Shown: piece after piece, positions 1-41,569 of the stretch
Layout of the letters: every line of letters begins with the position of its first letter
How positions within the stretch are numbered: position 1 is the first letter of the stretch
The notes under the pieces: generated by a model
The model's database searches: none
What the model was told of the DNA's origin: nothing
The model's input: the letters and a program-made list of their open reading frames with translations, nothing else
Translations under genes and position numbers: made by a program
Virus record (IMG/VR): IMGVR_UViG_3300025009_000137
Location: 1 to 53,064 of that record
DNA length: 53,064 bases
Reading direction: 5' to 3' (one strand)
From: a virus
Taxonomy: Duplodnaviria; Caudoviricetes

Positions 1-130
1 AACATTCCCCAATGATATGCTTGAAGATATAGAAAAATATTGGCATGAGCAAAAACTGAAAAATAGAAATGAAGCTATTAGGAAACTTGTTAAAATTGGT
101 TTAGAATCGGGAAAGACCTCTAAAAAATAA
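1..130 (+). CDS. Ribbon-helix-helix (CopG/MetJ-like) regulator, 5'-truncated by the window edge
   Basis: Near-identical to 37298..37465; reads TFPNDMLEDIEKYW...NRNEAIRKLVKIGL. Confidence 0.75.
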   Translation, partial: TFPNDMLEDIEKYWHEQKLKNRNEAIRKLVKIGLESGKTSKK

Positions 131-193
131 GAGGTCTTTATTTTTATTCATTTTCAAGGTTATAATATTCAATTATCTACTATTTCTTTAACA

Positions 194-215
194 AACTAAC
201 GCACCTTCGTTAGTT
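194..215. other. Palindromic putative tyrosine-recombinase site AACTAACG-CACCTT-CGTTAGTT
   Basis: 8-6-8 inverted repeat identical to 37526..37547; homology between A and B ends just after it. Confidence 0.6.
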
Positions 216-217
216 GG

Positions 218-451
218 TTATTCATACTCCGATTCGATCCAGGGATCTGGTGGATACGTCTGAATAACTACTCCATCCATGATATTGAAATAATCTAAAT
301 CATCTTGAGTAAGCTGTGTCTCGTCATACCTAGATAGTCTGCGACCATTTATATCAACTCTTGGATCACCAAGTATTTGACCGCTAGGCAATGGTACTTC
401 TGTGCTCTCAAAACTTTCCAAACTTGGCCAAATGATATAATAAAATGTCAT
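218..451 (-). CDS. Hypothetical protein (variable cassette region)
   Basis: 77-aa ORF overlapping the upstream stop; ends at the palindromic site. Confidence 0.6.
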   Translation of the reverse strand: MTFYYIIWPSLESFESTEVPLPSGQILGDPRVDINGRRLSRYDETQLTQDDLDYFNIMDGVVIQTYPPDPWIESEYE

Positions 452-1176
452 GGTAAAACAACTCCTCTCTGTTTTAAAAATTTTTTAATAACTCGGTGCT
501 GTTTTTGCACCATGCTATTACTAAGAAACTTTGAGTAAATCAGCATGTAATACAACATACCAACTAAATACGGTGCGCCACTTGTTTGTGCTCCAATGCG
601 ACAACCTACTGTATTAGAAGGGTTTGCTGCTGATACGTGACCGTATAATTCCTTATCTATAATCATTTTTCCAGTAGCAAAAAGATTATTATAACAATAG
701 GTAAAAATATGTGGTGTATATACATCAAATGAACCTGCCGCTTTCGCTAACTGCGTTGCTGTTGTTGTACCGACATTTAAACATCCACGCATATATTTTA
801 GATAAGGACTTATGTTCGTTGACATTCCCGGTGATGCGTTAATTATTAGTCTGTCAGTTGCACTAATAGACGAACCTAAAACGGTGCCACCACTACTACT
901 AACCTTGCTTACGGTAATAATAGTAAAATCGTTTTGAACAGATAGAGCGTTTTTAATTGCATCGGGCAAGGTTATATAATCGTCATAAAATTCTACACCA
1001 TTTAAAACTCTGGTTGGTTTATTCCCTCCGGCACCAAATGTTCCATGATTACCATTTCCAGAGTAATCAATTAGTGTATCGCCTTCAAGTTCATCAAAAC
1101 GATATTCAGCAATTAACCCTTCAGTATACATACCTTCTATACTGCTTGTTTTTGGTGATAGAACTGATATTTTCAT
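448..1176 (-). CDS. LamG/concanavalin A-like jelly-roll protein
   Basis: GLIAEYRFDE...LIDYSGNGNHG, RIGA and terminal IYSKFLS motifs typical of LamG-like domains. Confidence 0.7.
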   Translation of the reverse strand: MKISVLSPKTSSIEGMYTEGLIAEYRFDELEGDTLIDYSGNGNHGTFGAGGNKPTRVLNGVEFYDDYITLPDAIKNALSVQNDFTIITVSKVSSSGGTVLGSSISATDRLIINASPGMSTNISPYLKYMRGCLNVGTTTATQLAKAAGSFDVYTPHIFTYCYNNLFATGKMIIDKELYGHVSAANPSNTVGCRIGAQTSGAPYLVGMLYYMLIYSKFLSNSMVQKQHRVIKKFLKQRGVVLP

Positions 1177-1190
1177 ATTCTTATCACCGC

Positions 1191-2204
1191 CTAATATAAT
1201 TCCACATCAATATTTACTACTGTTCCCCGTCCTGCAATAATATCAACCAGGACTATTAAATTTTTAACTGAATTAACATCAACGACTATCACTTGTGAGA
1301 GCGGTTGACCGCTTATACCACCCAAAAGTGATAGCAAATTTGCATCTACAGCATACCAATCGTTGGAAGTATCGTTTTTGCTAAAGAAAGGTACTATACC
1401 AACAGAAGGAGCAATTCTCAAATCAGTCACAGTAGATTTTATATAGATGTATGCTTTAGTTTTGCCGACACATGAAATTTCTTCTATGCCAGAAAAAACA
1501 TAAGCATTGTTCGCAACAATAGAGGCAGAAGTAGACGCAATGCCTGTTCCAACAGTCTGCACGTTTACAACGCCCGCACTACCCCCTGCCTCAACAGTTC
1601 CGACAGCGGTAATAACACAACCTGTAGCACGTTGTGTTTCGGTTACACGTGCAACCCAAAGAGGTGCAGTTGTTGACGTACTAAGGTAAATATCGTAGTA
1701 TTCTGCGCCTGTTGCTTGGGGAACCGTTATATCTATGCTTTTATTTACTGTAGGCGCAACAGTCACTAAAGCACTAACACCAGCAGAACCATAACTATTA
1801 CCAGGAGCAACCCCTATGCCATGAGCAACTGCCGTAAGTGAACCTGCTGTCGCTGGTTGGTCTGCTGCGGTTATTGTGATTGCAGGTACTTTATCGACAG
1901 ATGTTATCGCTGTACGGTGTGCGATAACCGCAGTTCTACTACCAGTTAATTTTATACTACCAGGATTACTATCAGTGAATATCTCTGTCCCACTTGAATC
2001 TACTGGGACAACCTTGCCATCAAATCTCTTGTATGTGTTTGTACCAGGAATGCGTTGCAACATAAAAGAAGTTGTAGCTAACGCATTTACGAAAGTTTCT
2101 TCATCACCTAATGATCCTTGGATATAAACATCTCTATCACCTGCTGAATTTGTAATACTTGCTTGACCTAATTTTCTATTTGAACGATCAATAATATCAG
2201 ACAT
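1191..2204 (-). CDS. Putative capsid-associated/decoration protein with variable C-terminus after KLTGS
   Basis: Directly downstream of the MCP; Thr/Ala/Val-rich; composition shifts near 1940. Confidence 0.6.
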   Translation of the reverse strand: MSDIIDRSNRKLGQASITNSAGDRDVYIQGSLGDEETFVNALATTSFMLQRIPGTNTYKRFDGKVVPVDSSGTEIFTDSNPGSIKLTGSRTAVIAHRTAITSVDKVPAITITAADQPATAGSLTAVAHGIGVAPGNSYGSAGVSALVTVAPTVNKSIDITVPQATGAEYYDIYLSTSTTAPLWVARVTETQRATGCVITAVGTVEAGGSAGVVNVQTVGTGIASTSASIVANNAYVFSGIEEISCVGKTKAYIYIKSTVTDLRIAPSVGIVPFFSKNDTSNDWYAVDANLLSLLGGISGQPLSQVIVVDVNSVKNLIVLVDIIAGRGTVVNIDVELY

Positions 2205-3391: not shown

Positions 3392-3961
3392 TTATTTATT
3401 TCTTGCTTTGATATAATCATCCATACTTAATTTACCTAAATCATCCATAGTGTAACTTTTGTTACCACCACCAGGAGGATTAGTTCCTGAACCAATTGGA
3501 GTAGTTTCTCCAAACAGATAACCATCTGAAGTTTGTAATGCTTTAAGTTGATCATCTAACCCTATTAAATTGTCGCCATCTACAATAATCTTACTTTCAT
3601 CTAGCAATGCTTTGATTGCTTTAATATTCTTACCTTTTGCTTTATTTAGTTCTGCTTCTAATTTAAAATCAAAAGTTTGCTTCTTAAGTTTTTCTTCATA
3701 TTGCTTAGTTGCTTCCTCATTCTTCAATTTCAACTCTTCAAACTGTTTGGTTAGTTCTTCATTCCCTACTGCCTTAGTCTTTAATTCTGCTAATTGCTTA
3801 TCTCTTTCTTCTAACTGCTTCTTATATTCCTTTTTACTTTCATTTGCTTCATTGAATTTATCAATAGGAATATATGTACCATCATTGATGATCAATTTCT
3901 TATCACCCATTTTTTCTTGCACTTGCTTAAATAATTCTGCACCTAGTAAATTTTCTAACAT
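3392..3961 (-). CDS. Capsid scaffolding protein (Gp20-like)
   Basis: YIPIDKFNE, coiled coil, IKALLD...GLDDQLKALQTSDGYLF. Confidence 0.85.
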   Translation of the reverse strand: MLENLLGAELFKQVQEKMGDKKLIINDGTYIPIDKFNEANESKKEYKKQLEERDKQLAELKTKAVGNEELTKQFEELKLKNEEATKQYEEKLKKQTFDFKLEAELNKAKGKNIKAIKALLDESKIIVDGDNLIGLDDQLKALQTSDGYLFGETTPIGSGTNPPGGGNKSYTMDDLGKLSMDDYIKARNK

Positions 3962-4066
3962 TATTTCAATCTCCTCTCAATTTTCCACTAACCTTTTTTA
4001 AATGGTTGGCACCATCTGCGATCTTTTGTTTAACCTACAAAATACTAAAAAAGGCAATTTTATAAT

Positions 4067-4873
4067 TTAATTATCTAATTCAGGTAAGTATGCTCCATAG
4101 GCATGTTTACAGTTTGGATGGAAAAGTCCTTTAGATTTGGCATAATCTAGTGTCTTATATCCTTCAGTTTTACCTGTAAGGGATAATATTTCACCCTCCC
4201 AAGGTTTGCATAGTTTACATGGATTAGAATGTTTAGAAATTTTTATTAAATCATATTTATTTTCAACAAATCTATTTGCTGTAGCATTTAAATGTGTCTC
4301 CATAACTCCTGTTCTGATAACCATTTTTGTATAATTCCCCATGTTCCACTGTCTACCTGCACTATCTTGAAAACCAGTTATACCATTCTTCAATAAATCA
4401 TTTAAATAGTTTCTTGAACCTTGTTGCCATGATTTATTACCTATTGAAACTTGCTTTATATGATCCAATGCTAAATTTCTATATATATCTTCTACCCTTC
4501 TGCCAACAGTAAAGAATTGTTGCTCTAAACGATTATATATACTATCACTTGCAATTTGTACTGCTATTGAGTGAATCTCTCCCATATCAACAGTAGTACC
4601 ACCAGCTTTTTTAATCTGTTTATCAGCAAATTGTACACCAGAAAAATATATTTTTGGCATAACCTCAGCTAACCAAGATTTTGTTTCGCCTCTTAAATCA
4701 TTCAATATATTTAAACTATCTGATTTTGCTTTATTAATACCTTTTAAAAAAATATTTGTTGATATGGCAATGGTAAATGCTTTAATTATGAAATCTTCAA
4801 CAGTATCAAATAAACTTGTTAATCTATCTCCTTCATCCTCTGATTCTCTAATTAACTCTTCATCTATTGCCAT
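4067..4873 (-). CDS. Phage minor capsid / head morphogenesis protein
   Basis: DSAGRQW, C-x2-C-x-PWEG and GLFHPNCKH motifs. Confidence 0.85.
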   Translation of the reverse strand: MAIDEELIRESEDEGDRLTSLFDTVEDFIIKAFTIAISTNIFLKGINKAKSDSLNILNDLRGETKSWLAEVMPKIYFSGVQFADKQIKKAGGTTVDMGEIHSIAVQIASDSIYNRLEQQFFTVGRRVEDIYRNLALDHIKQVSIGNKSWQQGSRNYLNDLLKNGITGFQDSAGRQWNMGNYTKMVIRTGVMETHLNATANRFVENKYDLIKISKHSNPCKLCKPWEGEILSLTGKTEGYKTLDYAKSKGLFHPNCKHAYGAYLPELDN

Positions 4874-6264
4874 TATACAACACTTCCAGTATTAGGTAAT
4901 GTTATTTTAGGAGGTTCAACACTATCAGCTTTTTTTTCTGCATTTATTTTATTAATTTCATTATCTAACTGTTGACCTTCTAATCCATCTAATCTTCTAA
5001 TAGATGATTCTAAAGAAGATAATCCTGAGCCATACCTTTGTGTTTCAATAGTTGTTTTCTCTCCATCATCTTCAGGTAATCCATCACGCCAAAATAAGTA
5101 AACATTGTTTAATTTTGTTGCTCCTGGTTTACCTTGTGCTACTTCTAATGCAGAAGCTAATTTAAGCACTTTTTTAATTTGAGGATCAAAAGATAAACGA
5201 ATTCTGTTAACTTTTGCTAAACTTGCCATCAACAGACGTTTTAAAGCTGAACCTGATTCTGCTAATCCTTGCTTTATATTTCCAAATGCGGCAGAACTTG
5301 TCTCGCTAAGAAAATATAACTGGTCAATCAAATAATCTATTTGCTTAAATCCTGCATCGAGATGTCCCTCCCAAACTAGATAACCCGGAATAGGATCATC
5401 TTTACTTTCTATAGGATAGAATTTACTACCACCTCTGAAAGAAGATTGTCCAAATTCATCTATTTCTAAAGCACTTGATGGGCCGTACATATTCGGGTCA
5501 CTGTGCTTGTCCAAGATCCGACTGATCTGAGAAAATCTAATCTCAATTTCTTGAACAATACTATCAATATCAGTATAGTCATCATGTCCTGTCACATCTT
5601 CTGAAGTTATTAAATTAGATACACGAACAATTAAAAAATCATTTATACCTGTATTCTGTGTAGTAGATTCTACTAATTCGGATATTTTATCTTTTTGCAA
5701 TATATAAGTATTAGTTTGAATCTTACCTTTGTAGTGAATCTCTGCTCTTAAATAATCAGTTTTATTTGATGTATATGTCCATGCCAAAACATGATTAAGA
5801 ATATCACTAACATTAAAAGGATTTACTACAGGGAACCAACAGCTTGGACTGTTTGCCTGAATAATAGAATAATTATCATCATATCTAATTTTAAATAATC
5901 CATCTGCGAATCTTGAAGTATCTAAGGCAACCTTGTAACATTCCATGATAAAATTATTATCTTCAATTATTCTATCAAGATTATTTTGTTCAGGAGAATT
6001 TACATCACCTGAAACTATTCTCGGAGGCTCGCCAAAAAGCAGATCAGAAAAAAGTTTAGTAAGTCTACGATGCCAATTTAAGATGATCTCCATAGTTGCT
6101 TGTTGATCATCTCTAAGTAATCTAACCCAATCTGTATATACTTGATCATGCTTACCTTTAAATAGTAAACGATTAGTATTATACATTTTTAATCTTTCTC
6201 TGGTATCCTGATCATCTGGAGGCCATGATTGACCAATTTGTAAAAAGTTTAAATCAGTAAGTAT
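4873..6264 (-). CDS. Portal protein (SPP1 gp6-like); probable ATA start
   Basis: ESGSALKR motif; lies between terL and minor capsid; SD GGGGTG then ATA at 6264, with an in-frame TAG immediately upstream. Confidence 0.85.
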   Translation of the reverse strand: MLTDLNFLQIGQSWPPDDQDTRERLKMYNTNRLLFKGKHDQVYTDWVRLLRDDQQATMEIILNWHRRLTKLFSDLLFGEPPRIVSGDVNSPEQNNLDRIIEDNNFIMECYKVALDTSRFADGLFKIRYDDNYSIIQANSPSCWFPVVNPFNVSDILNHVLAWTYTSNKTDYLRAEIHYKGKIQTNTYILQKDKISELVESTTQNTGINDFLIVRVSNLITSEDVTGHDDYTDIDSIVQEIEIRFSQISRILDKHSDPNMYGPSSALEIDEFGQSSFRGGSKFYPIESKDDPIPGYLVWEGHLDAGFKQIDYLIDQLYFLSETSSAAFGNIKQGLAESGSALKRLLMASLAKVNRIRLSFDPQIKKVLKLASALEVAQGKPGATKLNNVYLFWRDGLPEDDGEKTTIETQRYGSGLSSLESSIRRLDGLEGQQLDNEINKINAEKKADSVEPPKITLPNTGSVV

Positions 6265-9113: not shown

Positions 9114-9284
9114 TCAACCCAAATACCTACAACACCCTTCACACCAATCATCACTTTCATCAATATCATTAATAACTTCTTTAATTAAATCTTGAATATC
9201 ACCAACAAATATATCTTTATCAAGTAAATTAATATGAGCTTTCATCAACTCTTTATAGACTACCAACAAATCATCTAGTGACAT
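9114..9284 (-). CDS. Hypothetical protein (56 aa)
   Basis: SD AGGAG; MSLDDLLVVYKELMK...WCEGC; homolog at 45873..46055. Confidence 0.6.
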   Translation of the reverse strand: MSLDDLLVVYKELMKAHINLLDKDIFVGDIQDLIKEVINDIDESDDWCEGCCRYLG

Positions 9285-9372
9285 AAGTTATCTTCTCCTC
9301 TATCAAATATATTTATTTAAAATAAAGTGAAAAGGCTGTCACAAATTCATGCAACAACCTTAATCACCTAAA

Positions 9373-9609
9373 CTAACTAACCCTTTTCCTCTTTAGAATT
9401 TCCTTTCTCACAAACTTGAAACTATTTAGAAACTTATGTAAATTTTTATCGTTCTTATATGTGCTTTTTAACTCAGAAATATCCTGACCAACAACCATAT
9501 AATACTTCCCTGGTTTATCCTCGTCTTCTACTAGGTCATAATCATTAATCCCCTGAGAAATCAAATAAGCCATTAGATTAACTGAATATATCCTTTTCTT
9601 ATCCACCAT
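9373..9609 (-). CDS. DUF5659-like small protein
   Basis: RIYSVNLMAYL pattern; homolog at 46329..46568. Confidence 0.5.
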   Translation of the reverse strand: MVDKKRIYSVNLMAYLISQGINDYDLVEDEDKPGKYYMVVGQDISELKSTYKNDKNLHKFLNSFKFVRKEILKRKRVS

Positions 9610-9618
9610 TTCACCTTC

Positions 9619-10260
9619 CTAACTAATCTTGCTCGCACAATTAATAAATTCAAAAATATCCATAATTTCATTCTTATTAGATTCTTCTATTGCTCTTGTA
9701 TTATAAGTAAACGGAACAACTGGTAAAACATCTTTCCATCTCCTAACGCCTATCCTGCTAACCATACTTGTACTAACATCATACATCTCAGCTATTTCTT
9801 TATGTTTCAAATTAGTATTCTGCTTGATCCACAGTATCTCTCCGGCTAATACTCTTGACAATTTTACACAATTAGGATTCTTCTCACCGGAAAACATTTC
9901 ACTCCACTTTTGTCTATGCAATTCTTTTTCTTCTGGTGTCCTAATTTTCTTTTCAGTCTTATGTATCTCTCTAATATTCAAAACAGTATCTTTTAACAAT
10001 TTTTTGTAATACTTTTCTTTCTTCAATGAATCAGTTTCATCACAATACTCAATAATTTCAAACTGCAAATTTCTCTCGTCAATAGAATTAAATAAACTCT
10101 GGATACCTTTATTCTTGTGCTTACCATGTCGAAGCAAACTAATATGGTTTGATTCCCTTGACTCCAAATCTCCAGAACCAACATACTTGAATTCATTGTT
10201 AACCCTATCAATCAACGCATAAACACCAATCTTTTCTTCAAACTTTAACTTTTTACTCAT
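9619..10260 (-). CDS. GIY-YIG endonuclease-like protein with C-terminal HTH
   Basis: GVY...YVGS, R-x3-H, H-x-N, GEKNP, KEIAEMYDVSTSMVSRI. Confidence 0.75.
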   Translation of the reverse strand: MSKKLKFEEKIGVYALIDRVNNEFKYVGSGDLESRESNHISLLRHGKHKNKGIQSLFNSIDERNLQFEIIEYCDETDSLKKEKYYKKLLKDTVLNIREIHKTEKKIRTPEEKELHRQKWSEMFSGEKNPNCVKLSRVLAGEILWIKQNTNLKHKEIAEMYDVSTSMVSRIGVRRWKDVLPVVPFTYNTRAIEESNKNEIMDIFEFINCASKIS

Positions 10261-10380
10261 AATAAAATCTCCTCCTATTAATTTTTAATTTGACTTTAAC
10301 CTCATTTTGAGATATGATTATTGTGGGATTTTATTTGATTCCCACAAAAAAATAAAAAAGGCCAATGATGGCCTTAATGT

Positions 10381-10860
10381 CTACCCTGCCAGTACCTTTA
10401 AATTTTTCATATTTCTAATATTTAACTTCTTCTCTTTCTTCCGCTTATTCCTTGCTTTCTGAATCTCATCATATTCCAACCAACCACCATCACGCATTGA
10501 ATATCCGATCCAACGATAATCAATATCTGGATACCTATAATGGAATAATTTTTTCTTTAATTTGGCTGTAGCATCTGCAAGCCCCTTAACATCCCAAACT
10601 ATAACTGAATTATCAGCATAAGTTAGAACAAAGTCCGCAACATAGTTAATACCTAAAATATTCTTACCTTTAAATTTAAACTTTGGCTGCAATTCATATT
10701 TAACTTGAAGCTGGCAATCTTTAATTGTGTTATTTTTAAGTCCAACACAAACTATATCCCGGTAATATTTCATTTCTAATTCTGAATCAAAGGTTATGTT
10801 GTTATATGTACGGTTTTGCTTGTTTTTATCTACATTAAATTTTGAACGATTCTTTTTTAT
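10381..10860 (-). CDS. DUF1064-like PD-(D/E)XK nuclease; probable ATA start
   Basis: ITFDSELE, LQVKYELQPKF, YVADF, DVKG; SD GGAGGTG-5 nt-ATA. Confidence 0.75.
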   Translation of the reverse strand: MKKNRSKFNVDKNKQNRTYNNITFDSELEMKYYRDIVCVGLKNNTIKDCQLQVKYELQPKFKFKGKNILGINYVADFVLTYADNSVIVWDVKGLADATAKLKKKLFHYRYPDIDYRWIGYSMRDGGWLEYDEIQKARNKRKKEKKLNIRNMKNLKVLAG

Positions 10861-20441: not shown

Positions 20442-21365
20442 CTATAAATCTATTCCATTTAATGGATTATGCTTATCGTTGATAGATTTTAAAGAAGTTC
20501 CCCACAAAGCATAATATTTGTTCAGCATACTTAAATTTGCATGTCCCATCATTCTTTGTAAACTCAGCAAATCACATCCAGATTTTATCATACTTGAACA
20601 GAATGTATGTCTAAAAGTATGAGCCGACAATCTAACATTTTTGAAATTCATATTAGTCTTCAACCGTTTAAATATACATTTAACACCATTTACTGTAAGT
20701 TGTTCATTATTTCTGTTCGTGAATACAAATTCAATATTTTTGTGTTCAAATTGTTGCTGAACAAATACTTTGTATTCACAGATTTCTTTAATCAATTTTG
20801 AAGTTATTGGAATACTTCTTAAACTTCTTTTCTTACCAAAGACTGTCATAGACTGATTCTGAATGTCTATATCATCCCATTTTAGGTTTATTGCCTCACC
20901 TAATCTTATTCCAGTGGATAAAAGTGTTGTGATCAAAAAATAATCACGATAAGCCCAAAAAGTTTGATGTCTAAATTTAAGGCGTTGATAATAACCCAAC
21001 ATCTGCTTAATCTGATCATTAGTGAAGATCTCAATTTTAATATCTGTTTTGAGATAGGAAATTTTTTTAGCAGGATTATTTTTTTCGTTATAAATTCCAA
21101 TTTCCTCCATATAATTAGTAAAGATTTTGAGATTATGAAGTTTATGATTGATGCTAGTAGGATTATTAATCCTATCTTTCTGACAATGAAGCAGATAGGA
21201 TTTAATTGTTGAAGCAGTGATATCTGAGCAATCAACTACTTCTCTCTGAACACAAAAATCATGGAATTCTTGAATTGTTCTGTGATAGCCATCTATTGTT
21301 ACTTTTGACAAATTCTTAAATTCCCTGTCTTCAATGAAATCTTTAATAGCAAATTTTAACAGCAA
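20442..21365 (-). CDS. int: Tyrosine integrase of prophage A
   Basis: TGIRLGE, VFGK, HTFRH, MGH...KYY; adjacent to the tRNA fragment. Confidence 0.9.
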   Translation of the reverse strand: MLLKFAIKDFIEDREFKNLSKVTIDGYHRTIQEFHDFCVQREVVDCSDITASTIKSYLLHCQKDRINNPTSINHKLHNLKIFTNYMEEIGIYNEKNNPAKKISYLKTDIKIEIFTNDQIKQMLGYYQRLKFRHQTFWAYRDYFLITTLLSTGIRLGEAINLKWDDIDIQNQSMTVFGKKRSLRSIPITSKLIKEICEYKVFVQQQFEHKNIEFVFTNRNNEQLTVNGVKCIFKRLKTNMNFKNVRLSAHTFRHTFCSSMIKSGCDLLSLQRMMGHANLSMLNKYYALWGTSLKSINDKHNPLNGIDL

Positions 21366-21512
21366 AAAACCACCTCCCAATTGATATTTTGAATATCAAA
21401 CAGAAAGTGGTTATAAATATCTTTATCAGGTCTAAGTGTGAACACTTGTTATGTGAATCGCCTCAAACCCTTGATATTATTGACTTTAAGTGCTACATTT
21501 GTTCAGTCAAAA

Positions 21513-25403: not shown

Positions 25404-25994
25404 TTATTTTCTTTCTAAACCCAAAACAACACTAACAATATAAGCATACTCATTAGCTAACTTATGAATAAAATTTTCATCTAAAAGTAAATTTAATTCT
25501 GTTTCATTTGATATAAATAAATCCTCGAAAAGTATAGCTGGCATATATGTTTCTCTTACTTCTGCGAAATTAGCATATTTTTTACCTCTGTCTGTGATAT
25601 TATATTGCTTTAAAAATTGCATAATATGTTGATGAATTTGATTTCTATAGGAATCGGAAATTTTTCCTTTTGCGTTTGGATGTACAAATGATTCATAACC
25701 ATGTGCCTTTTTATCTGTGGCTGAATTTGTGTGAAATGATAAGTATAAATCAATAGGTTTAATTTTGTGAAGTCTATTTGCTATTTCTATTGTTTGATAT
25801 AAATCTTGTTTAAAATCTACATTAGGATTAGTCATAGAAGGTTGAATATTTATTATTTCGCATATGAAATTTTTTTCCATTATATTTTTAAATTCCATAG
25901 TTAAATCCCAATTTAAATATTTCTCATATATTTTACCATTAATTGCTCCAATATCTCTGCCACCATGACCGCTTGCTGTAACGATTCTTTTCAT
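25404..25994 (-). CDS. Endolysin, N-acetylmuramoyl-L-alanine amidase (Amidase_3)
   Basis: GHGGRD, EK, SFHTNS, PAILFE. Confidence 0.9.
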   Translation of the reverse strand: MKRIVTASGHGGRDIGAINGKIYEKYLNWDLTMEFKNIMEKNFICEIINIQPSMTNPNVDFKQDLYQTIEIANRLHKIKPIDLYLSFHTNSATDKKAHGYESFVHPNAKGKISDSYRNQIHQHIMQFLKQYNITDRGKKYANFAEVRETYMPAILFEDLFISNETELNLLLDENFIHKLANEYAYIVSVVLGLERK

Positions 25995-25995
25995 A

Positions 25996-26196
25996 TTATT
26001 CACCTTCTGATTTATTAAATTTACTAGAAATAGCTGAAACACCACCAGTAAGTCCTAAACCAACGCCGAAATATGAAATCATATCCTTAATGTTTTCAAT
26101 AGGACTACCTATAAAACAACTAGCAATATAAGAGATTAAGCACACTCCCATACAGCCAGCTAAAAAATAATCCATCTTTGTAAATTCTTTTTTCAT
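25996..26196 (-). CDS. Putative holin
   Basis: Two TM segments, directly upstream of the endolysin. Confidence 0.6.
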   Translation of the reverse strand: MKKEFTKMDYFLAGCMGVCLISYIASCFIGSPIENIKDMISYFGVGLGLTGGVSAISSKFNKSEGE

Positions 26197-34749: not shown

Positions 34750-35151
34750 TTAATCTCTTGTTGTTGCAATTGCATAATTGCAAATAAAAACAGATCGCTC
34801 ATTTGCGTCTGTTTCAAGTTTGAATGGATTTTGCAAAGCATTGATAATACTTACCCTTGTTTGAGTAAGTTGAATTCCTTCACCTTTATCTTCTATATCT
34901 AACAAATTAAAAATCGCCCAGGCTTTTGACCGAGCGACTGAATAACTTTTATTTCTAACCAATATTTGTATTCTTCTATCTAATGCACTAACACCTGTGG
35001 TAGTAGGTAATCCGGCATACTCAAAAACGCAAATAATATTGTCTAAATCTGGTTTATTATCAAGAAAAATATCTGTTCCTATTGATGTTGCCAAACTATT
35101 ATTAATTAAATAATTAGCTACATCTCTAATTAATTCTGCTAAGTCAATCAC
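34750..35151 (-). CDS. Tail terminator / minor capsid family protein
   Basis: IQILVR, DANER...FICNY; synteny. Confidence 0.65.
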   Translation of the reverse strand: MIDLAELIRDVANYLINNSLATSIGTDIFLDNKPDLDNIICVFEYAGLPTTTGVSALDRRIQILVRNKSYSVARSKAWAIFNLLDIEDKGEGIQLTQTRVSIINALQNPFKLETDANERSVFICNYAIATTRD

Positions 35152-35154
35152 CTC

Positions 35155-35493
35155 CTACTCCCTTAATGCTGAATTAATTCTATCGTTTGTAAGTTGAATA
35201 ACTCTATCTTTATTTCTATTAAATGGATCTTCTAAAAATTTAGCTTTGCCATCTATATGTAAAATTTGTAAATCCTCATGTTGTTTTAAAGCATAAGGTG
35301 TATTATACAAAATAACTACAGAATCATCTTGATCAATTACTGTTCCACTTCTTCTTAATGTACCAGATTCAATAGGACATTCATCAATAGATTCAGTTAA
35401 AATATGTTCTGCTCCATTGTGCATTGCTTGCATACCAACACGTTTAATTAATCTTTCAATCGCATTACCATTCCATGTTAAATCACTACTCAT
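35155..35493 (-). CDS. HK97 gp10-like neck protein
   Basis: PIESGTLRRS, YNTPYALKQHE, AKFLE. Confidence 0.75.
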   Translation of the reverse strand: MSSDLTWNGNAIERLIKRVGMQAMHNGAEHILTESIDECPIESGTLRRSGTVIDQDDSVVILYNTPYALKQHEDLQILHIDGKAKFLEDPFNRNKDRVIQLTNDRINSALRE

Positions 35494-35786
35494 TAAACAC
35501 TTACCTCTCTAAATTGGATATTACCTTCTAAATCTGTAATATCTGATACTGCTAATACAGTCCAATCTCTGCTATACCAAGTAATAATATCATTCGGTAA
35601 TACTACTGATTTTGTATATATTGTTGCTTCAGATACTACTTCTTTTCCTTGTGAATTTCTAACAATTTTCCTTTTACCTTCCCATCTTATATTTATTGTA
35701 GATGAAGTAGTAATTGATTCTCCGTATTCATTAACACCAGTAGTCGTTTTTAATGTAGTAGTTTGATTTAAATAATTTTCTATCAT
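35493..35786 (-). CDS. Head closure protein
   Basis: NEYGE and VRNSQGKEVVS; synteny. Confidence 0.6.
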   Translation of the reverse strand: MIENYLNQTTTLKTTTGVNEYGESITTSSTINIRWEGKRKIVRNSQGKEVVSEATIYTKSVVLPNDIITWYSRDWTVLAVSDITDLEGNIQFREVSV

Positions 35787-36325
35787 ACAATACTCACCGC
35801 ACCAGCTAAATAAGGTTTAAGCAATTCTTTTGCATCCTGAGAAAGTAACCCTCTCCCTGCACCATCTTTAAAATTTTCGCTCATTCCACTTAAAGAAAAA
35901 TTGCTAACCCCTTCCTGCTGTAATTTTCTTCTTTGAGAATTTCCTCTTTCTAGCAAAGTTAATGCTTCTTCACATTGTGCTTCTTTTACATTTTGTGTAA
36001 CCTCTTCTTCACAATTCCAGATAGAATAGCAATTTATATAAGGTTCATATTTTGTTAAATTAATAGGACGATTAATTAGTAAATTATAATCATTTCTTTT
36101 ATCTACAACATAGCATCTTGGAAAAGCAAGTATTTGACCTTCAACTTTTTTAATTCCTTTATAAAATTGTTTATTAATATTTTTACAAGCCATAATCAAC
36201 GCTCTTGATTTATTGTCTGTGCTTGCCGAAGTCCAAGTATCAGAATAGAGCCTATTATTAAAATATGTGTCTGCATCTGTCACAGATATATAGCTATTTT
36301 CATTTACGGTAATTAATACTGCCAT
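35783..36325 (-). CDS. Head-tail connector (adaptor) protein
   Basis: NSYISVTDADTYF, LAFPR, VKEAQCE, LLKPYL. Confidence 0.7.
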   Translation of the reverse strand: MAVLITVNENSYISVTDADTYFNNRLYSDTWTSASTDNKSRALIMACKNINKQFYKGIKKVEGQILAFPRCYVVDKRNDYNLLINRPINLTKYEPYINCYSIWNCEEEVTQNVKEAQCEEALTLLERGNSQRRKLQQEGVSNFSLSGMSENFKDGAGRGLLSQDAKELLKPYLAGAVSIV

Positions 36326-36345
36326 AAATCACCACCACCTCTATA

Positions 36346-37188
36346 TTATCTCATATACTTATTGTATTCCTGTTTCCTACGTTCTCTTGAAGAATGAGCA
36401 TATATTAAAGTTGTCGATGGTCGTACATGCCCTAAAGTTTTCATAATAACATCTAATGAAGCACCATTTTCTAACATTGTTGTTGCCGTTGTATGTCTCC
36501 ATCTATGGGGAAATACATTAGATTCTACTTCTGAATTTTTAGCAATATCTTTTACAACTTCACGAATTCTGGCAATGCTCATTCTGCGGATTGGATTTCT
36601 TTCAGTAACAAATAATGCCTCACAGGCATCATTTCTACTATCTAGATATTTTTTTAACCAAATCCTACATTTTTCAGTAAAAAATACTTCTCTTTCTTTA
36701 TCACCTTTCCCTATAACTCTGACACCCCTATCTTGCCAATTAACGTCAGAGACATTACATCCAAAAACTTCTCCAATCCGACAACCAGTTGAATAAAAAA
36801 ATTCAACTAAAGATTTTTCTAATAATGTTTTACATGAATCTCTAATTAATTCAACTTCTTCTATGCTTAAAGATTTTGGTATTCTTGTACCTTCTTTTGG
36901 CTCTTTAAGTTTAGAAGAAATATTTTTATCTATAAAATCTTCCTCATGCAAATAACGAAAAAATGAACGTACAAAACGAATTCTATGTCCTAAACTAGCT
37001 GGCTTTAAATGCTCTTGTTGAATTAAATATTCTTTTAAATGAATATAGGTTATAGAAGTTATATCTACATCTCCTAAATATTTAATCAATAATTTAACCT
37101 GTAAAGAATATGCATTTAAAGTATGAGTAGAATAATTTAACAATTTCTTGTCTTTTTCATAAAATTCATATGCCCTTGACAACAACAA
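36346..37188 (-). CDS. XerC/D-like tyrosine recombinase embedded in the head-neck module
   Basis: TGCRIGE, GKGDKER, HRWRH, LGH...TLIY. Confidence 0.9.
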   Translation of the reverse strand: MLLSRAYEFYEKDKKLLNYSTHTLNAYSLQVKLLIKYLGDVDITSITYIHLKEYLIQQEHLKPASLGHRIRFVRSFFRYLHEEDFIDKNISSKLKEPKEGTRIPKSLSIEEVELIRDSCKTLLEKSLVEFFYSTGCRIGEVFGCNVSDVNWQDRGVRVIGKGDKEREVFFTEKCRIWLKKYLDSRNDACEALFVTERNPIRRMSIARIREVVKDIAKNSEVESNVFPHRWRHTTATTMLENGASLDVIMKTLGHVRPSTTLIYAHSSRERRKQEYNKYMR

Positions 37189-37201
37189 TATTATCACCCC
37201 T

Positions 37202-37275
37202 AGTTATATAACTTATATAACTAGAATATACTACTTTTATTGATACTTGTCAATATAGGTTATATAACTTATAAT
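37202..37275. promoter_or_regulatory. Divergent promoter region with GTTATATAACT operator repeats
   Basis: Minus TTGACA-17-TATATT at 37225..37253; palindromic AGTTATATAACT-type repeats on both sides. Confidence 0.6.
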
Positions 37276-37297
37276 ACTTTTAGGAGGTGATTTATTT

Positions 37298-37465
37298 ATG
37301 GCTGTTGATAAAGAAAAGAATGTCCAAATATTAGTAACATTCCCCAATGATATGCTTGAAGATATAGAAAAATATTGGCATGAGCAAAAACTGAAAAATA
37401 GAAATGAAGCTATTAGGAAACTTGTTAAAATTGGTTTAGAATCTGAAAAGACCTCTAAAAAATAA
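37298..37465 (+). CDS. Ribbon-helix-helix regulator (55 aa)
   Basis: SD AGGAGGTG; VQILVTFP...RNEAIRKLVKIGL; divergent from the recombinase. Confidence 0.8.
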   Translation: MAVDKEKNVQILVTFPNDMLEDIEKYWHEQKLKNRNEAIRKLVKIGLESEKTSKK

Positions 37466-37525
37466 GAGGTCTTTATTTTTATTCATTTTTAAGGTTAAAT
37501 ATTCAATCATCACACTCAGTTTACA

Positions 37526-37547
37526 AACTAACGCACCTTCGTTAGTT
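37526..37547. other. Palindromic putative tyrosine-recombinase site
   Basis: Identical to 194..215. Confidence 0.6.
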
Positions 37548-37554
37548 GGGTAAA

Positions 37555-37641
37555 TTATTCGTTTTCGCTTTCTGACCATGTCCTACCAATTACAACACCG
37601 TTCTCATTTTTAACTTCGGCTATAAGTTTTAGATTAACCAT
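37555..37641 (-). CDS. 28-aa cassette peptide
   Basis: MVNLKLIAEV...TWSESENE; SD GAGGAGG lies in the end of the upstream gene. Confidence 0.45.
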   Translation of the reverse strand: MVNLKLIAEVKNENGVVIGRTWSESENE

Positions 37642-37642
37642 A

Positions 37643-38239
37643 TTATAAAGCCTCCTCGACAACGCTTAATCTTACAGTTCTTACGCCCTCTTGTAGTACG
37701 TCCGTAGAATTAAAATACCTAAAAAACAAAGTATGGCCGCTTGATATTTTCAAATTCTTAAAAATACTAGCTTGTACCTTTAAGTCATTCGGTATAAATG
37801 ATTGCATTTGCTCATTTGTCGATGTGTTATACCAACCGGAATAACCTCGTTCCAGTTTTTTGTTAAAGGCAGCTGTACCTAAAATTAAAAATATACTACC
37901 TAAATAAACTGCACAAAAATGTGTACCACTTATAGCTCCGCTTGGAGCTATAACATTATACGATACGTCTTGCACTATCCATATTTTGCCTGATGGTACA
38001 ACTATTTCTTCCGTCGCGTTGCTACCTGCACCTACAGTTGTATTAAATGTGACACTTATCTGTTTAACATTTCTACCAGTTAGTTGCATACTTGCAGGAG
38101 TAGCACCGCTAATAATACTATCAATTTTTGCATTTAATGCATCAATCTTTGTGTTTAAATCTGTATCTTTAATTTTCAATTTATTTGCTGAAGAATCAAA
38201 AACATTTTCCATTATTTCTGTTTGTCTTGGTATACTCAA
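37643..38239 (-). CDS. Putative capsid-associated protein with variable C-terminus after QLTGR
   Basis: Coiled-coil N-terminus, beta-rich C-terminus; same slot as 1191..2204. Confidence 0.6.
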   Translation of the reverse strand: MSIPRQTEIMENVFDSSANKLKIKDTDLNTKIDALNAKIDSIISGATPASMQLTGRNVKQISVTFNTTVGAGSNATEEIVVPSGKIWIVQDVSYNVIAPSGAISGTHFCAVYLGSIFLILGTAAFNKKLERGYSGWYNTSTNEQMQSFIPNDLKVQASIFKNLKISSGHTLFFRYFNSTDVLQEGVRTVRLSVVEEAL

Positions 38240-38312
38240 TATTCTACCTCCTATCTTAAAAATAAATTAGGGGTTATTAAACCCCTAATAATTAATAATG
38301 CATGATCTAAAT

Positions 38313-39014
38313 TTAGTCTGGAGCATCTGCTAAAGTGTAAGTAATTTGAAGCATCATGGCAGGAGGATTAGCAGTTGCACCATTGGTAACATTTAACAAT
38401 AATTTTTCACCAGCTGCTAATACTTTATAAGTTTCATCAAGTGTACCTAAAGAATTTATTGTACCAACAGCAGGGAAGCCTGGGTCTGAATCATAAGCTG
38501 TATATACAATTGAATTAACTCCATTGGTTACACCAACAAGACAATTATTTCCATCATCAATTCCTGCTCCATTACCTTGTGGAATCATTGATACACTTTC
38601 TAAGGTTATAGTTAATCCTGCTGGAGCTACAAATATCACTCTATCAGCAATATCAACACCTGCTCCCAAATCTTCAATTTGATAATTAAACATATTAACT
38701 TTTGCTGTTGTTGCTAATTTTGCAAGAGTAATATTTGCATCTTTTACTTTTGCTGTTTCTACCGCATCTGAAGCTAGTTGTGTAGCACTAATAAAATCAT
38801 TTGCCATTTTTGCTCTACCAGTGGCATCTGCGGATAATGCTCCATCTGCTATTTTTGCTGTTTCAATTGCTCCATCTGCTACTGTTCCCACTGTGACTTC
38901 TTTACTATTTACACCATCATGATCATGACCTGAAGTTAGATTAAAAATTGATTGAAACAATCTCTTGATTATTGGATTTCTAATTGAATTAAAATCATAT
39001 GCCAAAATAATCAC
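38313..39014 (-). CDS. Putative head fibre/decoration protein
   Basis: GHDHDG and repeated AIETAKIAD-type motifs; follows the MCP. Confidence 0.6.
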   Translation of the reverse strand: MIILAYDFNSIRNPIIKRLFQSIFNLTSGHDHDGVNSKEVTVGTVADGAIETAKIADGALSADATGRAKMANDFISATQLASDAVETAKVKDANITLAKLATTAKVNMFNYQIEDLGAGVDIADRVIFVAPAGLTITLESVSMIPQGNGAGIDDGNNCLVGVTNGVNSIVYTAYDSDPGFPAVGTINSLGTLDETYKVLAAGEKLLLNVTNGATANPPAMMLQITYTLADAPD

Positions 39015-39088
39015 CTATCCTTTATATTTTATAGTAGTATAAGGGGTTTATTTCTTCCCCTTATACGTTAGTTCCTATATGGTTAAAT

Positions 39089-40030
39089 TTAGGAAGTTGC
39101 TAAATTAGTTATAGTACCATGCATAAATGCCGGGCCATGAGCTAGACCAACCTGTCCAAAAATGTGTCCACTTTCAGAAGCACCAGTTTTAGAAAGAGGC
39201 TCATAAAATAGATTACCCTTCTCAGGTACAGGTTGGAATACAGGTGCAATTACACTCATATCAGCAACCAACAAAGTACCTGCTGGCATGAATCTATGAG
39301 GATCAGCAATAGCTATATTACCAAAATCAGTTTCTATTTGCTTGACATTTACGCCACCAACATTTCTATCTGTGGGAGCATAACCGTATATATCACTAAT
39401 TTTCTGTTTCTGAAAACCACCACAAAAGATTACAGGATTTTTGAAATATGCTCCATTGGCAAACATTTCTAAAAGAAGTGTATCCATTAGAGCTTTACTT
39501 AAAGCACCAGCAGAAGCATCTACTGTATTAACAGTAGATAAAGCAATCATACCTCTGGTTTTATTCGCTACACCAGCATTAACAGCAATTTGATATACAC
39601 CATTGATAAAGCTATACTCAACGTCACGAGCAATTTTTTCTAATGCTTTAGCAATTTGCCAATCTCTTTCTGAAGTTACGTTGTTCTCTGCACTAGCAGT
39701 ATTAATACCAGTTAATCTTCCCTGATTACTCAATCTAACATAAGAAATAGAAATTGCTTCTTGGAAAATTTGAACCACGTTTTTACTTTGATTTCTTACA
39801 TATGAAATAGCTGTAGGTGCTGTTAAACTTGCAGTTTCGGTAATAGCTGGTTGTGCTGCTGCTTCATGTGAATACTGACTATCTGTTGCAAATTCAAAAT
39901 TATCTGTTTGCATACCACCAGTTAAGCCACCAATCATTGAAAGAAAAGGTGTATTAACTACATCTGAGGTGAATAATTCCCCTGTATAATTAGGTAAATT
40001 CCATACTGTTCCGGCTGCTACGTTTGCCAT
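39089..40030 (-). CDS. Major capsid protein (DUF5309/SU10-like family)
   Basis: LPNYTGELF, TPFLSMIGG, RDVEYSFING, ETDFG; follows the scaffold gene. Confidence 0.8.
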   Translation of the reverse strand: MANVAAGTVWNLPNYTGELFTSDVVNTPFLSMIGGLTGGMQTDNFEFATDSQYSHEAAAQPAITETASLTAPTAISYVRNQSKNVVQIFQEAISISYVRLSNQGRLTGINTASAENNVTSERDWQIAKALEKIARDVEYSFINGVYQIAVNAGVANKTRGMIALSTVNTVDASAGALSKALMDTLLLEMFANGAYFKNPVIFCGGFQKQKISDIYGYAPTDRNVGGVNVKQIETDFGNIAIADPHRFMPAGTLLVADMSVIAPVFQPVPEKGNLFYEPLSKTGASESGHIFGQVGLAHGPAFMHGTITNLATS

Positions 40031-40053
40031 GTTAAATCAATCTCCTTTACGTT

Positions 40054-40653
40054 TTAATTATTAAAATATTTTTTATTTTTTAACGATATTGCAAGAACAT
40101 TATTTCCTGCATTTATTGCATCTGCAATTTGCTTATCAATATCTGGATTGTGATTACCGCCACCAGGAGGATTTGTTGATCCACCTATAGGACTTGCTTC
40201 TCCAAATAAATAAGCATCGCTTGTTTGCAATGCTTTTAATTGATCGTCTAACCCTATTAAATTGTCACCATCAATAATAATTTTACTTTCATCCAGCAAT
40301 GCTTTGATGGCTTTGGTGTTTTTACCTTTTGCTTTTAACAATTCACTTTCAAGTTTAAAGTCAAAAGTCTGTTTCTTTAACTTTTCCTCATATTGCTTTG
40401 TTGCTTCTTCATTTTTCAATTTCAACTCTTCAAACTGTTTAGTTAATTCTTCATTCCCTGTTGCTTTAACTTTTAATGTTTCTAATTGCTTATCTCGTTC
40501 TTCAATCTGTTTCTTATATTCCTTTTTTGATTCGTTTGCTTCATTGAATTTTTCGATAGGAATATAATTTCCATCGTTTACAATTAGTTTTTTATCACCA
40601 ATTTTTTCTGATACTTGCTTAAATAATTCTTCACCTAATAATTCTTTTAACAT
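40054..40653 (-). CDS. Capsid scaffolding protein
   Basis: Highly similar to 3392..3961 except the C-terminal tip. Confidence 0.85.
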   Translation of the reverse strand: MLKELLGEELFKQVSEKIGDKKLIVNDGNYIPIEKFNEANESKKEYKKQIEERDKQLETLKVKATGNEELTKQFEELKLKNEEATKQYEEKLKKQTFDFKLESELLKAKGKNTKAIKALLDESKIIIDGDNLIGLDDQLKALQTSDAYLFGEASPIGGSTNPPGGGNHNPDIDKQIADAINAGNNVLAISLKNKKYFNN

Positions 40654-40762
40654 TATTTTTAAACCCTCCTATAATTTTCCTACTAACCTTTTTAAAGTGG
40701 TCGGCTCCACCTGTGGTCTTTTGTTATAACCTACAAAATACTAAAAAAGGCAATTATAAATA

Positions 40763-41569
40763 TTAATTATCCAATTCTGGTAAATAAGCTCCATAGGCAT
40801 GTTTACAATTTGGATGGAATAAACCTTTAGATTTTGCATATTCTAGTGTTTTATATCCTGAAGTTTTACCAGTAAGGGATAATATTTCACCCTCCCAAGG
40901 TTTACATAACTCACATGGATTAGAATGTTTAGATATTTTTATTAAATCATATTTATTTTCAACAAATCTATTTGCTGTAGCATTAAGATGTGTCTCCATA
41001 GTACCTGTTTTTATTACCATTTTTGTATAAGATTTCATGTTCCACTGTCTACCTGCTGAATCTTGAAAACCTGTTATTCCATTCTTTAGTAGATCATTTA
41101 AATAATTTCTTGAACCTTGTTGCCATGATTTATTACCTATTGAAACTTGCTTTATATGTTCTAAAGCTAAATTTCTATATATATCTTCTACCCTTCTGCC
41201 AACAGTAAAGAATTGTTGCTCTAAACGATTATATATAGAATCTGAAATAATTTGAACTGCTATTTGGTGAATCTCTCCCATATCAACAAGTTTTCCACCA
41301 GCTTTTTTAATTTGCTTATCAGCGAATTGAACACCAGAAAAATAAATTTTAGGCATTACTTCAGCTAACCATTTTTTTGTTTCACCTCTTAAATCATTAA
41401 GGATATTCAAAGAATCTGATTTTGCCTTGTTAATACCTTTCAAAAATATATTTGTTGATATTGCAATGGTAAATGCTTTTATGATAAAATCTTCAACTGT
41501 ATCAAAAAGACTTGTTAATCTATCTCCTTCATCCTCTGATTCTCTGATTAATTCTTCATCTATTGCCAT
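40763..41569 (-). CDS. Phage minor capsid / head morphogenesis protein
   Basis: Near-identical protein to 4067..4873. Confidence 0.85.
   Translation of the reverse strand: MAIDEELIRESEDEGDRLTSLFDTVEDFIIKAFTIAISTNIFLKGINKAKSDSLNILNDLRGETKKWLAEVMPKIYFSGVQFADKQIKKAGGKLVDMGEIHQIAVQIISDSIYNRLEQQFFTVGRRVEDIYRNLALEHIKQVSIGNKSWQQGSRNYLNDLLKNGITGFQDSAGRQWNMKSYTKMVIKTGTMETHLNATANRFVENKYDLIKISKHSNPCELCKPWEGEILSLTGKTSGYKTLEYAKSKGLFHPNCKHAYGAYLPELDN

Follow-up and report, generated by a model that had tools for sequence, protein, structure and literature searches.

Two short DNA sites as candidate boundaries of exchangeable C-terminal cassettes in phage late genes

The IMG/VR virus record IMGVR_UViG_3300025009_000137 (Duplodnaviria; Caudoviricetes), whose 53,064 bases were analyzed whole and are called the window below, contains two copies of a late-gene locus in which a 22-nucleotide (nt) palindrome is paired with a 13-nt motif lying inside a reading frame. 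Comparison with related phages indicates that the segments between these sites are gene cassettes exchanged between phage genomes at the sites themselves, a reading to which, whatever the enzyme, we assign a probability of roughly 0.9. That the adjacent Xer-like tyrosine recombinase catalyzes the exchange is a less firm proposal, which we favor by somewhat more than even odds.

A palindrome and an in-frame motif recur together

The palindrome has the form AACTAACG-N6-CGTTAGTT, and the 13-nt site, AACTAACTGGTAG, is read in frame as xLTG. Their positions in the window are given below, WA and WB denoting the loci of window copies A and B, and L-numbers other loci.

194..215, no strand: palindrome copy A, 22 nt, 8-6-8, spacer CACCTT; proposed full recombination site and cassette 3' end
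1939..1951, minus strand: in-frame 13-nt site copy A, AATTAACTGGTAG, one mismatch, reads K-L-T-G-S
37526..37547, no strand: palindrome copy B, 22 nt, 329 nt upstream of the recombinase start
38073..38085, minus strand: in-frame 13-nt site copy B, AACTAACTGGTAG, exact, reads Q-L-T-G-R

Both palindromes match AACTAACGCACCTTCGTTAGTT exactly, as an earlier note on this DNA had claimed for an identical 8-6-8 sequence, and matches with up to three mismatches arose in 0 of 100 shuffles. The shared motif that the same note had placed at 1939..1958 and 38073..38092 was recovered on the minus strand, encoding IKLTGS and MQLTGR in two proteins that resemble each other around the motif only (BLASTP E 0.11). 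The 13-mer is composed of the cassette-proximal palindrome arm AACTAAC, a direct repeat as had been noticed, and a short spacer-like stretch. A further 7-6-7 site proposed in copy B (38066..38085) did not stand, with three of seven positions complementary and a flank that is unconserved in other loci.

The exact 22-mer was present in 12 IMG/VR stretches, with both flanks differing among them. Allowing any 6-nt spacer yielded 37 stretches, 23 of which were assigned to the family and represent 16 distinct loci; family spacers, on the plus strand, are CACCTT, CATTTT, CAATTT, CACATT, CTTATT, CACCTC, and CTTCGT. The other 14 stretches (L022-L025, L027, L028, L032, L033, L036, L037, L039, L041, L043, and L044) were set aside because the motif was missing, the flanks were unrelated, or the flanking sequence was too short. 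In 17/17 distinct loci (15 others plus A and B) the 13-mer is found at a distance of 536-2201 nt from its palindrome, on a constant side and strand, and always within an open reading frame (ORF) in the frame xAA CTA ACT GGT AGx; that of L026 carries two mismatches. L034, the sixteenth distinct locus, has a variant 13-mer 3.1 kb from its palindrome.

Across 18 sequences the 13-mer is exact in 13 and has one or two mismatches in the other five, and its flanks are unconserved. Synonymous positions of the LTG codons are constrained, free variation there being an outcome that the earlier note had named as refuting its reading: leucine is encoded by CTA in 15/16 cases compared with an 11% background in the same loci (P ~1e-13; such values are only indicative, because the loci are not phylogenetically independent), threonine by ACT in 16/18 (background 36%), and glycine by GGT in 17/18 (background 47%). 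The codon following GGT is AGT, AGA, or AAT, its first base (A) being kept in 18/18 and its second (G) in 17/18 sequences with S, R, or N as the residue. By this codon choice, the 13-mer is conserved at the DNA level.

As single-stranded DNA the palindrome folds into a hairpin (-8 kcal/mol, z -5.4), and the 13-mer shows no folding in the same analysis. The palindrome is not itself the terminator: separate terminator-like hairpins are found next to it. The 13-mer contains TAA and TAG in its two alternative frames, and the palindrome in the LTG frame reads L-T-K-V-R-stop, so that a cassette-less junction would terminate the protein cleanly.

Some loci have a more elaborate layout. L013 (IMGVR_UViG_3300001242_000003) harbors two complete site pairs 8 kb apart (oriented coordinates 504-2201 and 9169-10128): one, following tail sheath and tube genes, has a 135-aa LTG protein, and one, following a minor head gene, has a 509-aa LTG protein, a 183-aa gene and the palindrome GACTAACGCAACTTCGTTAGTT. 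L185 (1262-4855) carries tandem LTG-site genes (185 and 132 aa), each with AACTAACGGGGAG. Downstream of these come two paralogues (354 and 358 aa), then a palindrome that is degenerate and a recombinase with 53% identity; L185 is the closest approach to an array among the loci seen. In L011, the palindrome is flanked by paralogous genes (2299-2949 and 3978-5570) whose first 33 residues are identical, and the 13-mer occurs only in the cassette-side gene. In the window, AACTAACG has five matches (0.8 expected), four of them in palindromes; the extra copy at 39066-39073 (minus strand), past the stop of capsid gene B and before a terminator-like hairpin, could be a third half-site or a chance match.

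Homology between phages breaks at the two sites

All-against-all blastn of 17 non-redundant loci yielded 70 high-scoring segment pairs, with endpoints counted on pairs of at least 150 nt (L008, L009, L010, L012, L014, L022, L024, L025, L031, L035, and L039 were left out as duplicates or non-family). Of the 82 internal endpoints, the palindrome accounts for eight and the 13-mer for 12; together these site windows make up ~1.1% of the compared length. The 62 endpoints elsewhere are expected, being normal for mosaic phages. L038 and WA (78% identity over 1766 nt) are homologous from the first palindrome base to inside the 13-mer and nowhere else nearby, and the same holds for L005 and L007 (73%) from the palindrome to inside the 13-mer. 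The pairs L005-L006, L006-WA, and L021-L040 share only the N-terminal side, their homology beginning no more than 2 nt from the site. Between L021 and L026, whose flanks on either side are 87-89% identical, the segment that differs runs exactly from the palindrome (+25) to the 13-mer (-2). The cassette A family (C-terminal domain, LamG-like gene, and small gene) stands behind at least four unrelated N-termini (WA, L007, L011, and L038), and the homology of A with the other three stops 9-12 nt into the 13-mer. Related phages thus offer what the earlier note had suggested looking for, namely one N-terminus with different C-termini, and in addition one cassette with different N-termini.

Within the window, segment A (1 to ~14.1 kb) and segment B (37.3-48.5 kb) are versions of one phage region with ~84% nt identity. 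Positions 1-220 and 37336-37552 are homologous (94%), the homology stopping 5 nt past the palindrome as had been described, and it restarts only at 3462 and 40154, within the scaffold gene; the unrelated blocks therefore measure 3.2 kb in A and 2.6 kb in B. They include different major capsid families, P22_Coat and SU10_MCP. The blocks of about 1.7 and 0.5 kb ending at the motif, as the earlier note had drawn them, are consequently not delimited by the A-B comparison, but they emerge against other phages. By that comparison, the only one in which they become visible, the 1.7-kb (A) and 0.5-kb (B) units prove to be real cassettes. The high GC content ascribed to the A block as a whole applies mainly to 1351-2100 (0.42-0.46), since positions 151-1350 reach only 0.34-0.38 against ~0.31 in the flanks.

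The palindrome is linked to an Xer-like recombinase gene

Next to the palindrome of copy B, at the palindrome end of the cassette and not at the in-frame site, lies a recombinase gene together with a ribbon-helix-helix (RHH) regulator gene:

36346..37197, minus strand: Xer-like tyrosine recombinase copy B, 283 aa
37298..37465, plus strand: RHH regulator gene copy B, 55 aa, divergent from the recombinase gene and followed by a terminator-like hairpin, gacctct..agaggtc
1..130, plus strand: 3' part of the RHH regulator gene, copy A; the window begins inside the gene; 94% identical to 37336-37465 of B

The assignment of both genes to the head-neck module was upheld, the head-tail adaptor gene being on one side of them and the head genes on the other. 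The RHH protein of B matches phrog_4738 (transcriptional repressor; E 2.5e-16) and NikR-type RHH proteins (E 3e-5). The recombinase belongs to PF00589 (E 2.4e-34), and its residues 20-276 of 283 align to XerD 1a0p (E 5e-32) as well as to XerA 4a8e and 5hxy; it has the two-domain build of the Xer family with no arm-binding domain. NCBIfam scores stay below all equivalog cut-offs (XerA 193.1 bits, cut-off 220; XerC 186.8, 335; XerD 179.9, 330). The catalytic R, K, HxxR, H, and Y are present, in the motifs TGCRIGE, GKGDKER, HRWRH, LGH, and IYAH, and by this complement the enzyme looks active. A separate integrase of 312 aa is encoded at 20442-21380, so the recombinase of the head-neck region is an extra enzyme; an amidase gene lies at 25404-26045.

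On the side of the palindrome facing away from the cassette, recombinase homologues occur within ~1.7 kb in WB, L003 (69% identity), L042 (67%), L020 (55%), L034 (51%), and L017 (95%), the L017 palindrome having one mismatch. Among the 17 non-redundant palindrome loci, four (WB, L003, L020, and L042) have such a homologue, and the corresponding flank of WA lies outside the window. L003 differs from L007 by a 1.2-kb insertion of recombinase and helix-turn-helix genes adjoining the palindrome, and no half-site was found at the left boundary of this module in the same comparison. The closest homologue (L017/L158, 1888-2731, 95%) is represented by a 201-aa ORF only, though tblastn covers residues 4-283, and the gene may be interrupted in the L017/L158 contig.

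The association was also examined from the enzyme side, with a profile of seven homologues searched against IMG/VR and the best 80 of 303 relatives used. Distinct loci with a palindrome variant (at most three mismatches) within 1.5 kb were counted, at least 500 nt of upstream sequence being needed:

Enzyme identity at least 50%: palindrome upstream 18/30; downstream (control) 1/34
Enzyme identity 44-49%: palindrome upstream 6/13; downstream (control) 0/15
Enzyme identity 40-43%: palindrome upstream 0/20; downstream (control) 0/20

Recombinase gene and palindrome are therefore linked in both search directions, in agreement with the association proposed earlier. Arm variants remain symmetric (AGCTAACG..CGTTAGCT in L156, AACTATCG..CGATAGTT in L179), and the enzyme clade with 45-53% identity has a right arm (CGATAG..) and a 13-mer (AACTAACGGG(G/C)AG) peculiar to it. 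In L176 the 13-mer matches the palindrome left arm and spacer at 12 of its 13 positions. Site variants, as in these examples, track enzyme clades.

Cassette genes and their products

The remaining features of the two cassettes and of their N-terminal neighbors are the following:

218..451, minus strand: cassette A last gene, 77-aa protein; stop 2 nt from the palindrome
448..1176, minus strand: cassette A passenger gene, 242 aa, LamG/ConA-like jelly-roll (a lead from structure models); homologues in L011 and L038
1191..1938, minus strand: cassette A coding region of the C-terminal beta-sandwich, about residues 90-337 of the 337-aa protein
1952..2204, minus strand: N-terminal 'constant' part of the 337-aa protein, residues 1-84, outside cassette A
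37555..37641, minus strand: cassette B candidate last ORF, 28 aa, translation MVNLKLIAEVKNENGVVIGRTWSESENE
37643..38072, minus strand: cassette B C-terminal coding region, from about residue 56 of the 198-aa protein (ORF 37643-38239)
38086..38239, minus strand: N-terminal part of the 198-aa protein, outside cassette B; resembles by eye (unscored) the N-terminus of the L011 530-aa protein

In the AlphaFold2 model of the 337-aa protein, the per-residue confidence (pLDDT) is at least 95 for residues 90-337 and 48-74 for residues 1-89; this jump near residue 90 places the LTG site (residues 86-88) in the linker that precedes the folded domain. The best fold matches of that domain are PBSX XepA (6i56_D, Z 12.1, root-mean-square deviation 2.0, 96 aligned residues) and SPbeta YomS (6i5o_A, Z 11.4), both beta-sandwich domains, and an inserted part resembles an SPO1 capsid protein domain (Z 9.6). 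Foldseek against PDB returned no match at E<=1e-3, and the BFVD fold search gave weak partial matches. The C-terminal domain has 247 representative homologues, mostly aligned from about residue 75-93 to the end with N-terminal lengths that vary widely, and [LIVM]TG stands at the junction in only 9 of 134; the domain is thus an old, widely distributed one, the recombination site being a trait of one clade. P0015 (177 aa) is 78% identical to the 337-aa protein over residues 1-129 and has a different C-terminus after LTGS. L005 and L006 share the N-terminal part of the 337-aa protein only over the last ~60-75 nt before the site.

For the 242-aa passenger, the LamG assignment of the earlier note survives as a model-based lead: in Atlas its features give a score of 0.98 against a cluster made up entirely (100%) of PF13385 members, and the predicted structure aligns with TM scores of 0.81/0.74 over 223 residues, but Pfam gave no match at E<=0.01. 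The 77-aa protein has homologues 65-77% identical at the equivalent cassette position in L011 and L038 and no Pfam, PHROG or NCBIfam family. The 198-aa protein of cassette B, for which none of these three databases yielded a family, has weak beta-sandwich matches in Atlas (TM 0.42-0.47 over residues ~42-198). A virion location of the LTG protein is plausible; the description of it as a capsid-region virion surface protein was not established, because the locus is not always in the capsid region, one L013 site pair following tail sheath and tube genes.

Window layout and searches in other data

On the minus strand the gene order is small and large terminase, portal, minor head protein, scaffold, major capsid, one to three small late genes, and the palindrome, beyond which copy B continues with the RHH gene (plus strand), the tyrosine recombinase, the head-tail adaptor, and tail genes. 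The record spans ~1.42 turns of a ~37.3-kb genome, the palindrome-to-palindrome distance being 37,332 nt. The overlapping passes, ~84% identical and with different capsid families, represent either two related phages, in tandem or as a cointegrate, or an assembly in which two strain variants were joined. A 213-aa ORF with a GIY-YIG domain lies among the early genes of copy A (9619-10260, minus strand), and in L005 a 229-aa ORF occupies 9839-10528.

Four groundwater metagenome runs, one of them possibly the sample of origin, contain 95-96% of sampled words from 35000-41000, and a small assembly produced a 16-kb contig ~98.5% identical over 36869-41000. Other contigs assembled from these runs share sequence with B only at the palindrome or only at the 13-mer, with loose ends at 37526, 37558, and 38085; those at 37526 and 37558 occur in runs X1 and X3. 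One X1 contig matches B up to 38085 and then continues with L003-type upstream sequence. A joint from 37554 to 38065 was rejected as a deletion and is read as another cassette variant, because it has 21 nt on one side and unknown letters between. Summed contig depth in X1 and X3 (35000-41000) is ~16-34 left of the palindrome and beyond 40829, and ~6-8 over cassette B and capsid gene B; this drop would fit several variants with common flanks, and contig depth (37613-40828) is unusable for ranking variants.

Among cultured phage records, blastn of 36300-37600 found no match and tblastn of the recombinase found only matches of 31-36% identity. In the two clostridial phages inspected, Clostridium phage phiCp-D (L234, 4752-4836) and Terrisporobacter phage TPELB_ph1 (L235, 4734-5729), an Xer-like 'integrase' 34-36% identical lies between the last tail gene and the holin, and AACTAAC sites are absent. 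TPELB_ph1 has an additional, separate large integrase, and phiCp-D carries an inverted repeat, TTCGTA-N12-TACGAA, just upstream of its 'integrase' gene. In species-representative genomes, the two arm-matching stretches with motif-like words nearby, L074 and L130, proved to be unrelated chromosomal genes. Literature searches turned up no account of the sites or of a system like this (supplements not covered).

Points against the exchange reading and alternative explanations

Several observations weigh against cassette exchange by the adjacent recombinase. Twelve of the 17 non-redundant palindrome loci (L004, L005, L006, L007, L011, L013, L021, L026, L029, L030, L038, and L040) have no recombinase homologue in the available flank (0.5-11 kb), and neither a circle nor a deletion joint was seen in the assembled contigs, the only form of the reads searched. 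The system occurred in 0 of 110 species-representative genome stretches matching the arms with any spacer, these being Paenibacillus and Caldilineaceae repeats, terminators, and chance matches. No convincing empty site, that is, an N-terminal ORF running in the LTG frame into the palindrome, was found. Breakpoints do fall on the LTG site and the palindrome, as the earlier note had predicted, but the homology of L003 and L007 resumes 65 and 113 nt upstream of the 13-mer, and the far boundary of the A/B difference lies in the scaffold gene at no site; ordinary mosaic recombination operates at the locus too. Many loci come from neighboring IMG metagenome ids and may share habitat or study, and one cassette family recurs in several of the breakpoint pairs, so that the counts exceed the number of independent events.

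The most serious alternative, which we nevertheless judge unlikely, is that recombinase and palindrome form a Cre/loxP- or Xer/dif-like system for multimer resolution or circularization, the cassette ends arising by homologous or microhomology recombination at short linkers and the 13-mer being no substrate. The Xer-like enzyme, its gene beside a palindrome with an asymmetric spacer as in cre-loxP, the off-site breaks and site-free scaffold boundary just described, and the twelve loci with no enzyme gene would all be accommodated, as would the ParM-carrying phage phiCp-D, whose 34% identical 'integrase' follows tail genes. A resolution site needs no partner, however, yet the 13-mer accompanies the palindrome in every distinct locus with a fixed orientation, and L013 has two complete pairs in one genome. 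The 13-mer is moreover kept synonymously, carries the palindrome arm and has a variant that tracks a recombinase clade; 13 and 22 nt are also short for RecA-type homologous recombination.

It is improbable that the elements act in gene expression, the palindrome as an RNA hairpin and the 13-mer as a recoding or termination-safety signal, with breakpoints piling up there as the sole conserved stretches. Such roles would suit the stops in both other frames of the 13-mer, the L-T-K-V-R-stop reading and good single-stranded folding of the palindrome, and compensatory arm changes, which are as compatible with a hairpin as with a symmetric protein site. The 13-mer, by contrast, does not fold and is no known slippery sequence of -1 or +1 frameshift sites, and both the tight linkage of palindrome and recombinase and the arm repeat inside a coding site would be left unexplained.

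Still less credible is an inversion switch of the shufflon or Rin type, in which recombination of the 13-mer with the inverted copy in the far palindrome arm would flip the cassette and switch the C-terminal domain off. The palindrome does hold AACTAAC in both orientations, and the phage-encoded Xer-like tyrosine invertase Rin swaps C-termini of receptor-binding proteins (PMC6109161). However, none of 77 recombinase loci and none of 17 palindrome loci carries the inverted 13-mer, each locus has one cassette and no opposed alternative C-terminal segments, and the inverted form reads LTHLR-stop. A chance match between unrelated genes, which the window alone might suggest (four 13-mer matches at up to two mismatches, 1.41 expected, reached by 6 of 100 shuffles), is refuted by recurrence of the 13-mer in 15 more distinct IMG/VR loci with the same frame, side, and strand relative to the palindrome.

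Comparison with known systems

Exchange at the two sites has several traits in common with integrons: promoterless cassettes, a palindromic end site, a simple joining site repeating one arm, and many site-bearing loci with no enzyme gene. GTTAGTT/AACTAAC agrees with the integron core GTTRRRY/RYYYAAC at 6/7 positions. Integron attC sites, however, are imperfect palindromes of ~57-141 nt with paired inner and outer repeats, whereas the palindrome here is perfect and 22 nt long. The enzyme is not of the IntI type (integron-integrase model TIGR02249, 76.6 bits against a cut-off of 265, in two stretches; PRK15417, 41.8 against 435). Its gene stands next to the palindrome in the same orientation as the cassette genes, and insertion occurs inside a coding sequence with the frame kept. 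No attC-like sites and no cassette arrays were found, there being one palindrome per locus and a second site-like match in only three recombinase loci. The integron-like reading of the earlier note is supported in part.

As in Cre/loxP of P1 and the single-recombinase Xer/dif systems (XerA, XerS, and XerH), one recombinase is encoded beside a palindromic site with an asymmetric spacer. Dif-type sites are 11-6-11 rather than 8-6-8, arms in these systems measuring 11-13 nt instead of 8, and the half-site-like second element in a coding region 0.5-2.2 kb away, with an intervening segment that varies among genomes, sets the present loci apart. The pdif modules of Acinetobacter plasmids are similar in that they too are sets of genes with Xer-type sites at their borders that are transferred from replicon to replicon and often have no recombinase of their own, but they have two full 28-bp sites, use host XerC/D, and form no in-frame fusion. 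The Rci shufflon of R64 swaps the C-terminus of a pilus adhesin within the coding sequence, with a constant N-terminus, by inversion within one genome.

The tail-fibre switches Gin of Mu, Cin of P1, and Min of p15B also swap the C-terminus of an adhesin at a site within the gene and keep the N-terminus constant; these three are serine recombinases, and they invert DNA within one genome (PMC6109161). In the Rin shufflon of Bifidobacterium prophages, a number of oppositely oriented segments of a single genome are inverted at rix sites of 11 bp (PMC6109161). Rin resembles the enzyme here in being a phage tyrosine recombinase of XerD-like build, with no arm-binding domain and separate from the phage integrase, and its gene also adjoins alternative C-termini of a late protein with a short crossover site at the constant/variable junction (PMC6109161). 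In the present locus the 13-mer stands at such a junction, at residues 86-88, with the recombinase adjacent. Differences from Rin, as portrayed there, are the single cassette per locus, the co-oriented genes, the lack of inverted sites, variation between genomes, and a 22-nt palindrome as one site. Of the known systems, Rin is the closest in operation, given its Xer-like enzyme and its coding crossover site for C-terminal swapping. Nevertheless, defining features of the Rin shufflon (inverted sites) and of integrons (IntI-type enzyme, attC-like site, arrays) are absent here.

Proposed exchange mechanism and its meaning

On the favored reading, each exchangeable cassette is bounded by the in-frame 13-mer and the palindrome and consists of the 3' part of a late-gene protein (the C-terminal beta-sandwich domain), none to several passenger genes, and the palindrome at its end. 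The 13-mer always lies in one reading frame, so any N-terminal module could join any cassette in frame. We propose that the Xer-like recombinase encoded beside the palindrome would bind the sites in cis, or in trans in phages that have no such gene and would rely on enzyme supplied from elsewhere. Like sites of co-resident genomes would then recombine, palindrome with palindrome and 13-mer with 13-mer, as a natural form of recombinase-mediated cassette exchange. The two direct AACTAAC repeats might also recombine, with release or insertion of a cassette circle. An integron-like, in-frame phage system of this kind, in which the Xer-family enzyme would excise promoterless cassettes as circles (13-bp site with the 22-bp hairpin-forming palindrome) and insert them at the same coding site of unrelated phages, is a tentative idea that we consider rather doubtful. 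Were it correct, the phage community would pool C-terminal binding domains and passenger genes for late, possibly virion-surface, proteins.

Phage mosaicism is usually explained by homologous or illegitimate recombination followed by selection; here, two DNA sites and a dedicated recombinase appear to guide exchange, with the exchange point built into the reading frame. If the mechanism holds, the compact recombinase and its sites of 13 and 22 bp might serve as an in-frame domain-swapping tool, and the locus would provide a testable case of the old 'linker sequence' idea of modular phage evolution. It would represent natural cassette exchange for protein domains and a new source of phage host-interaction diversity.

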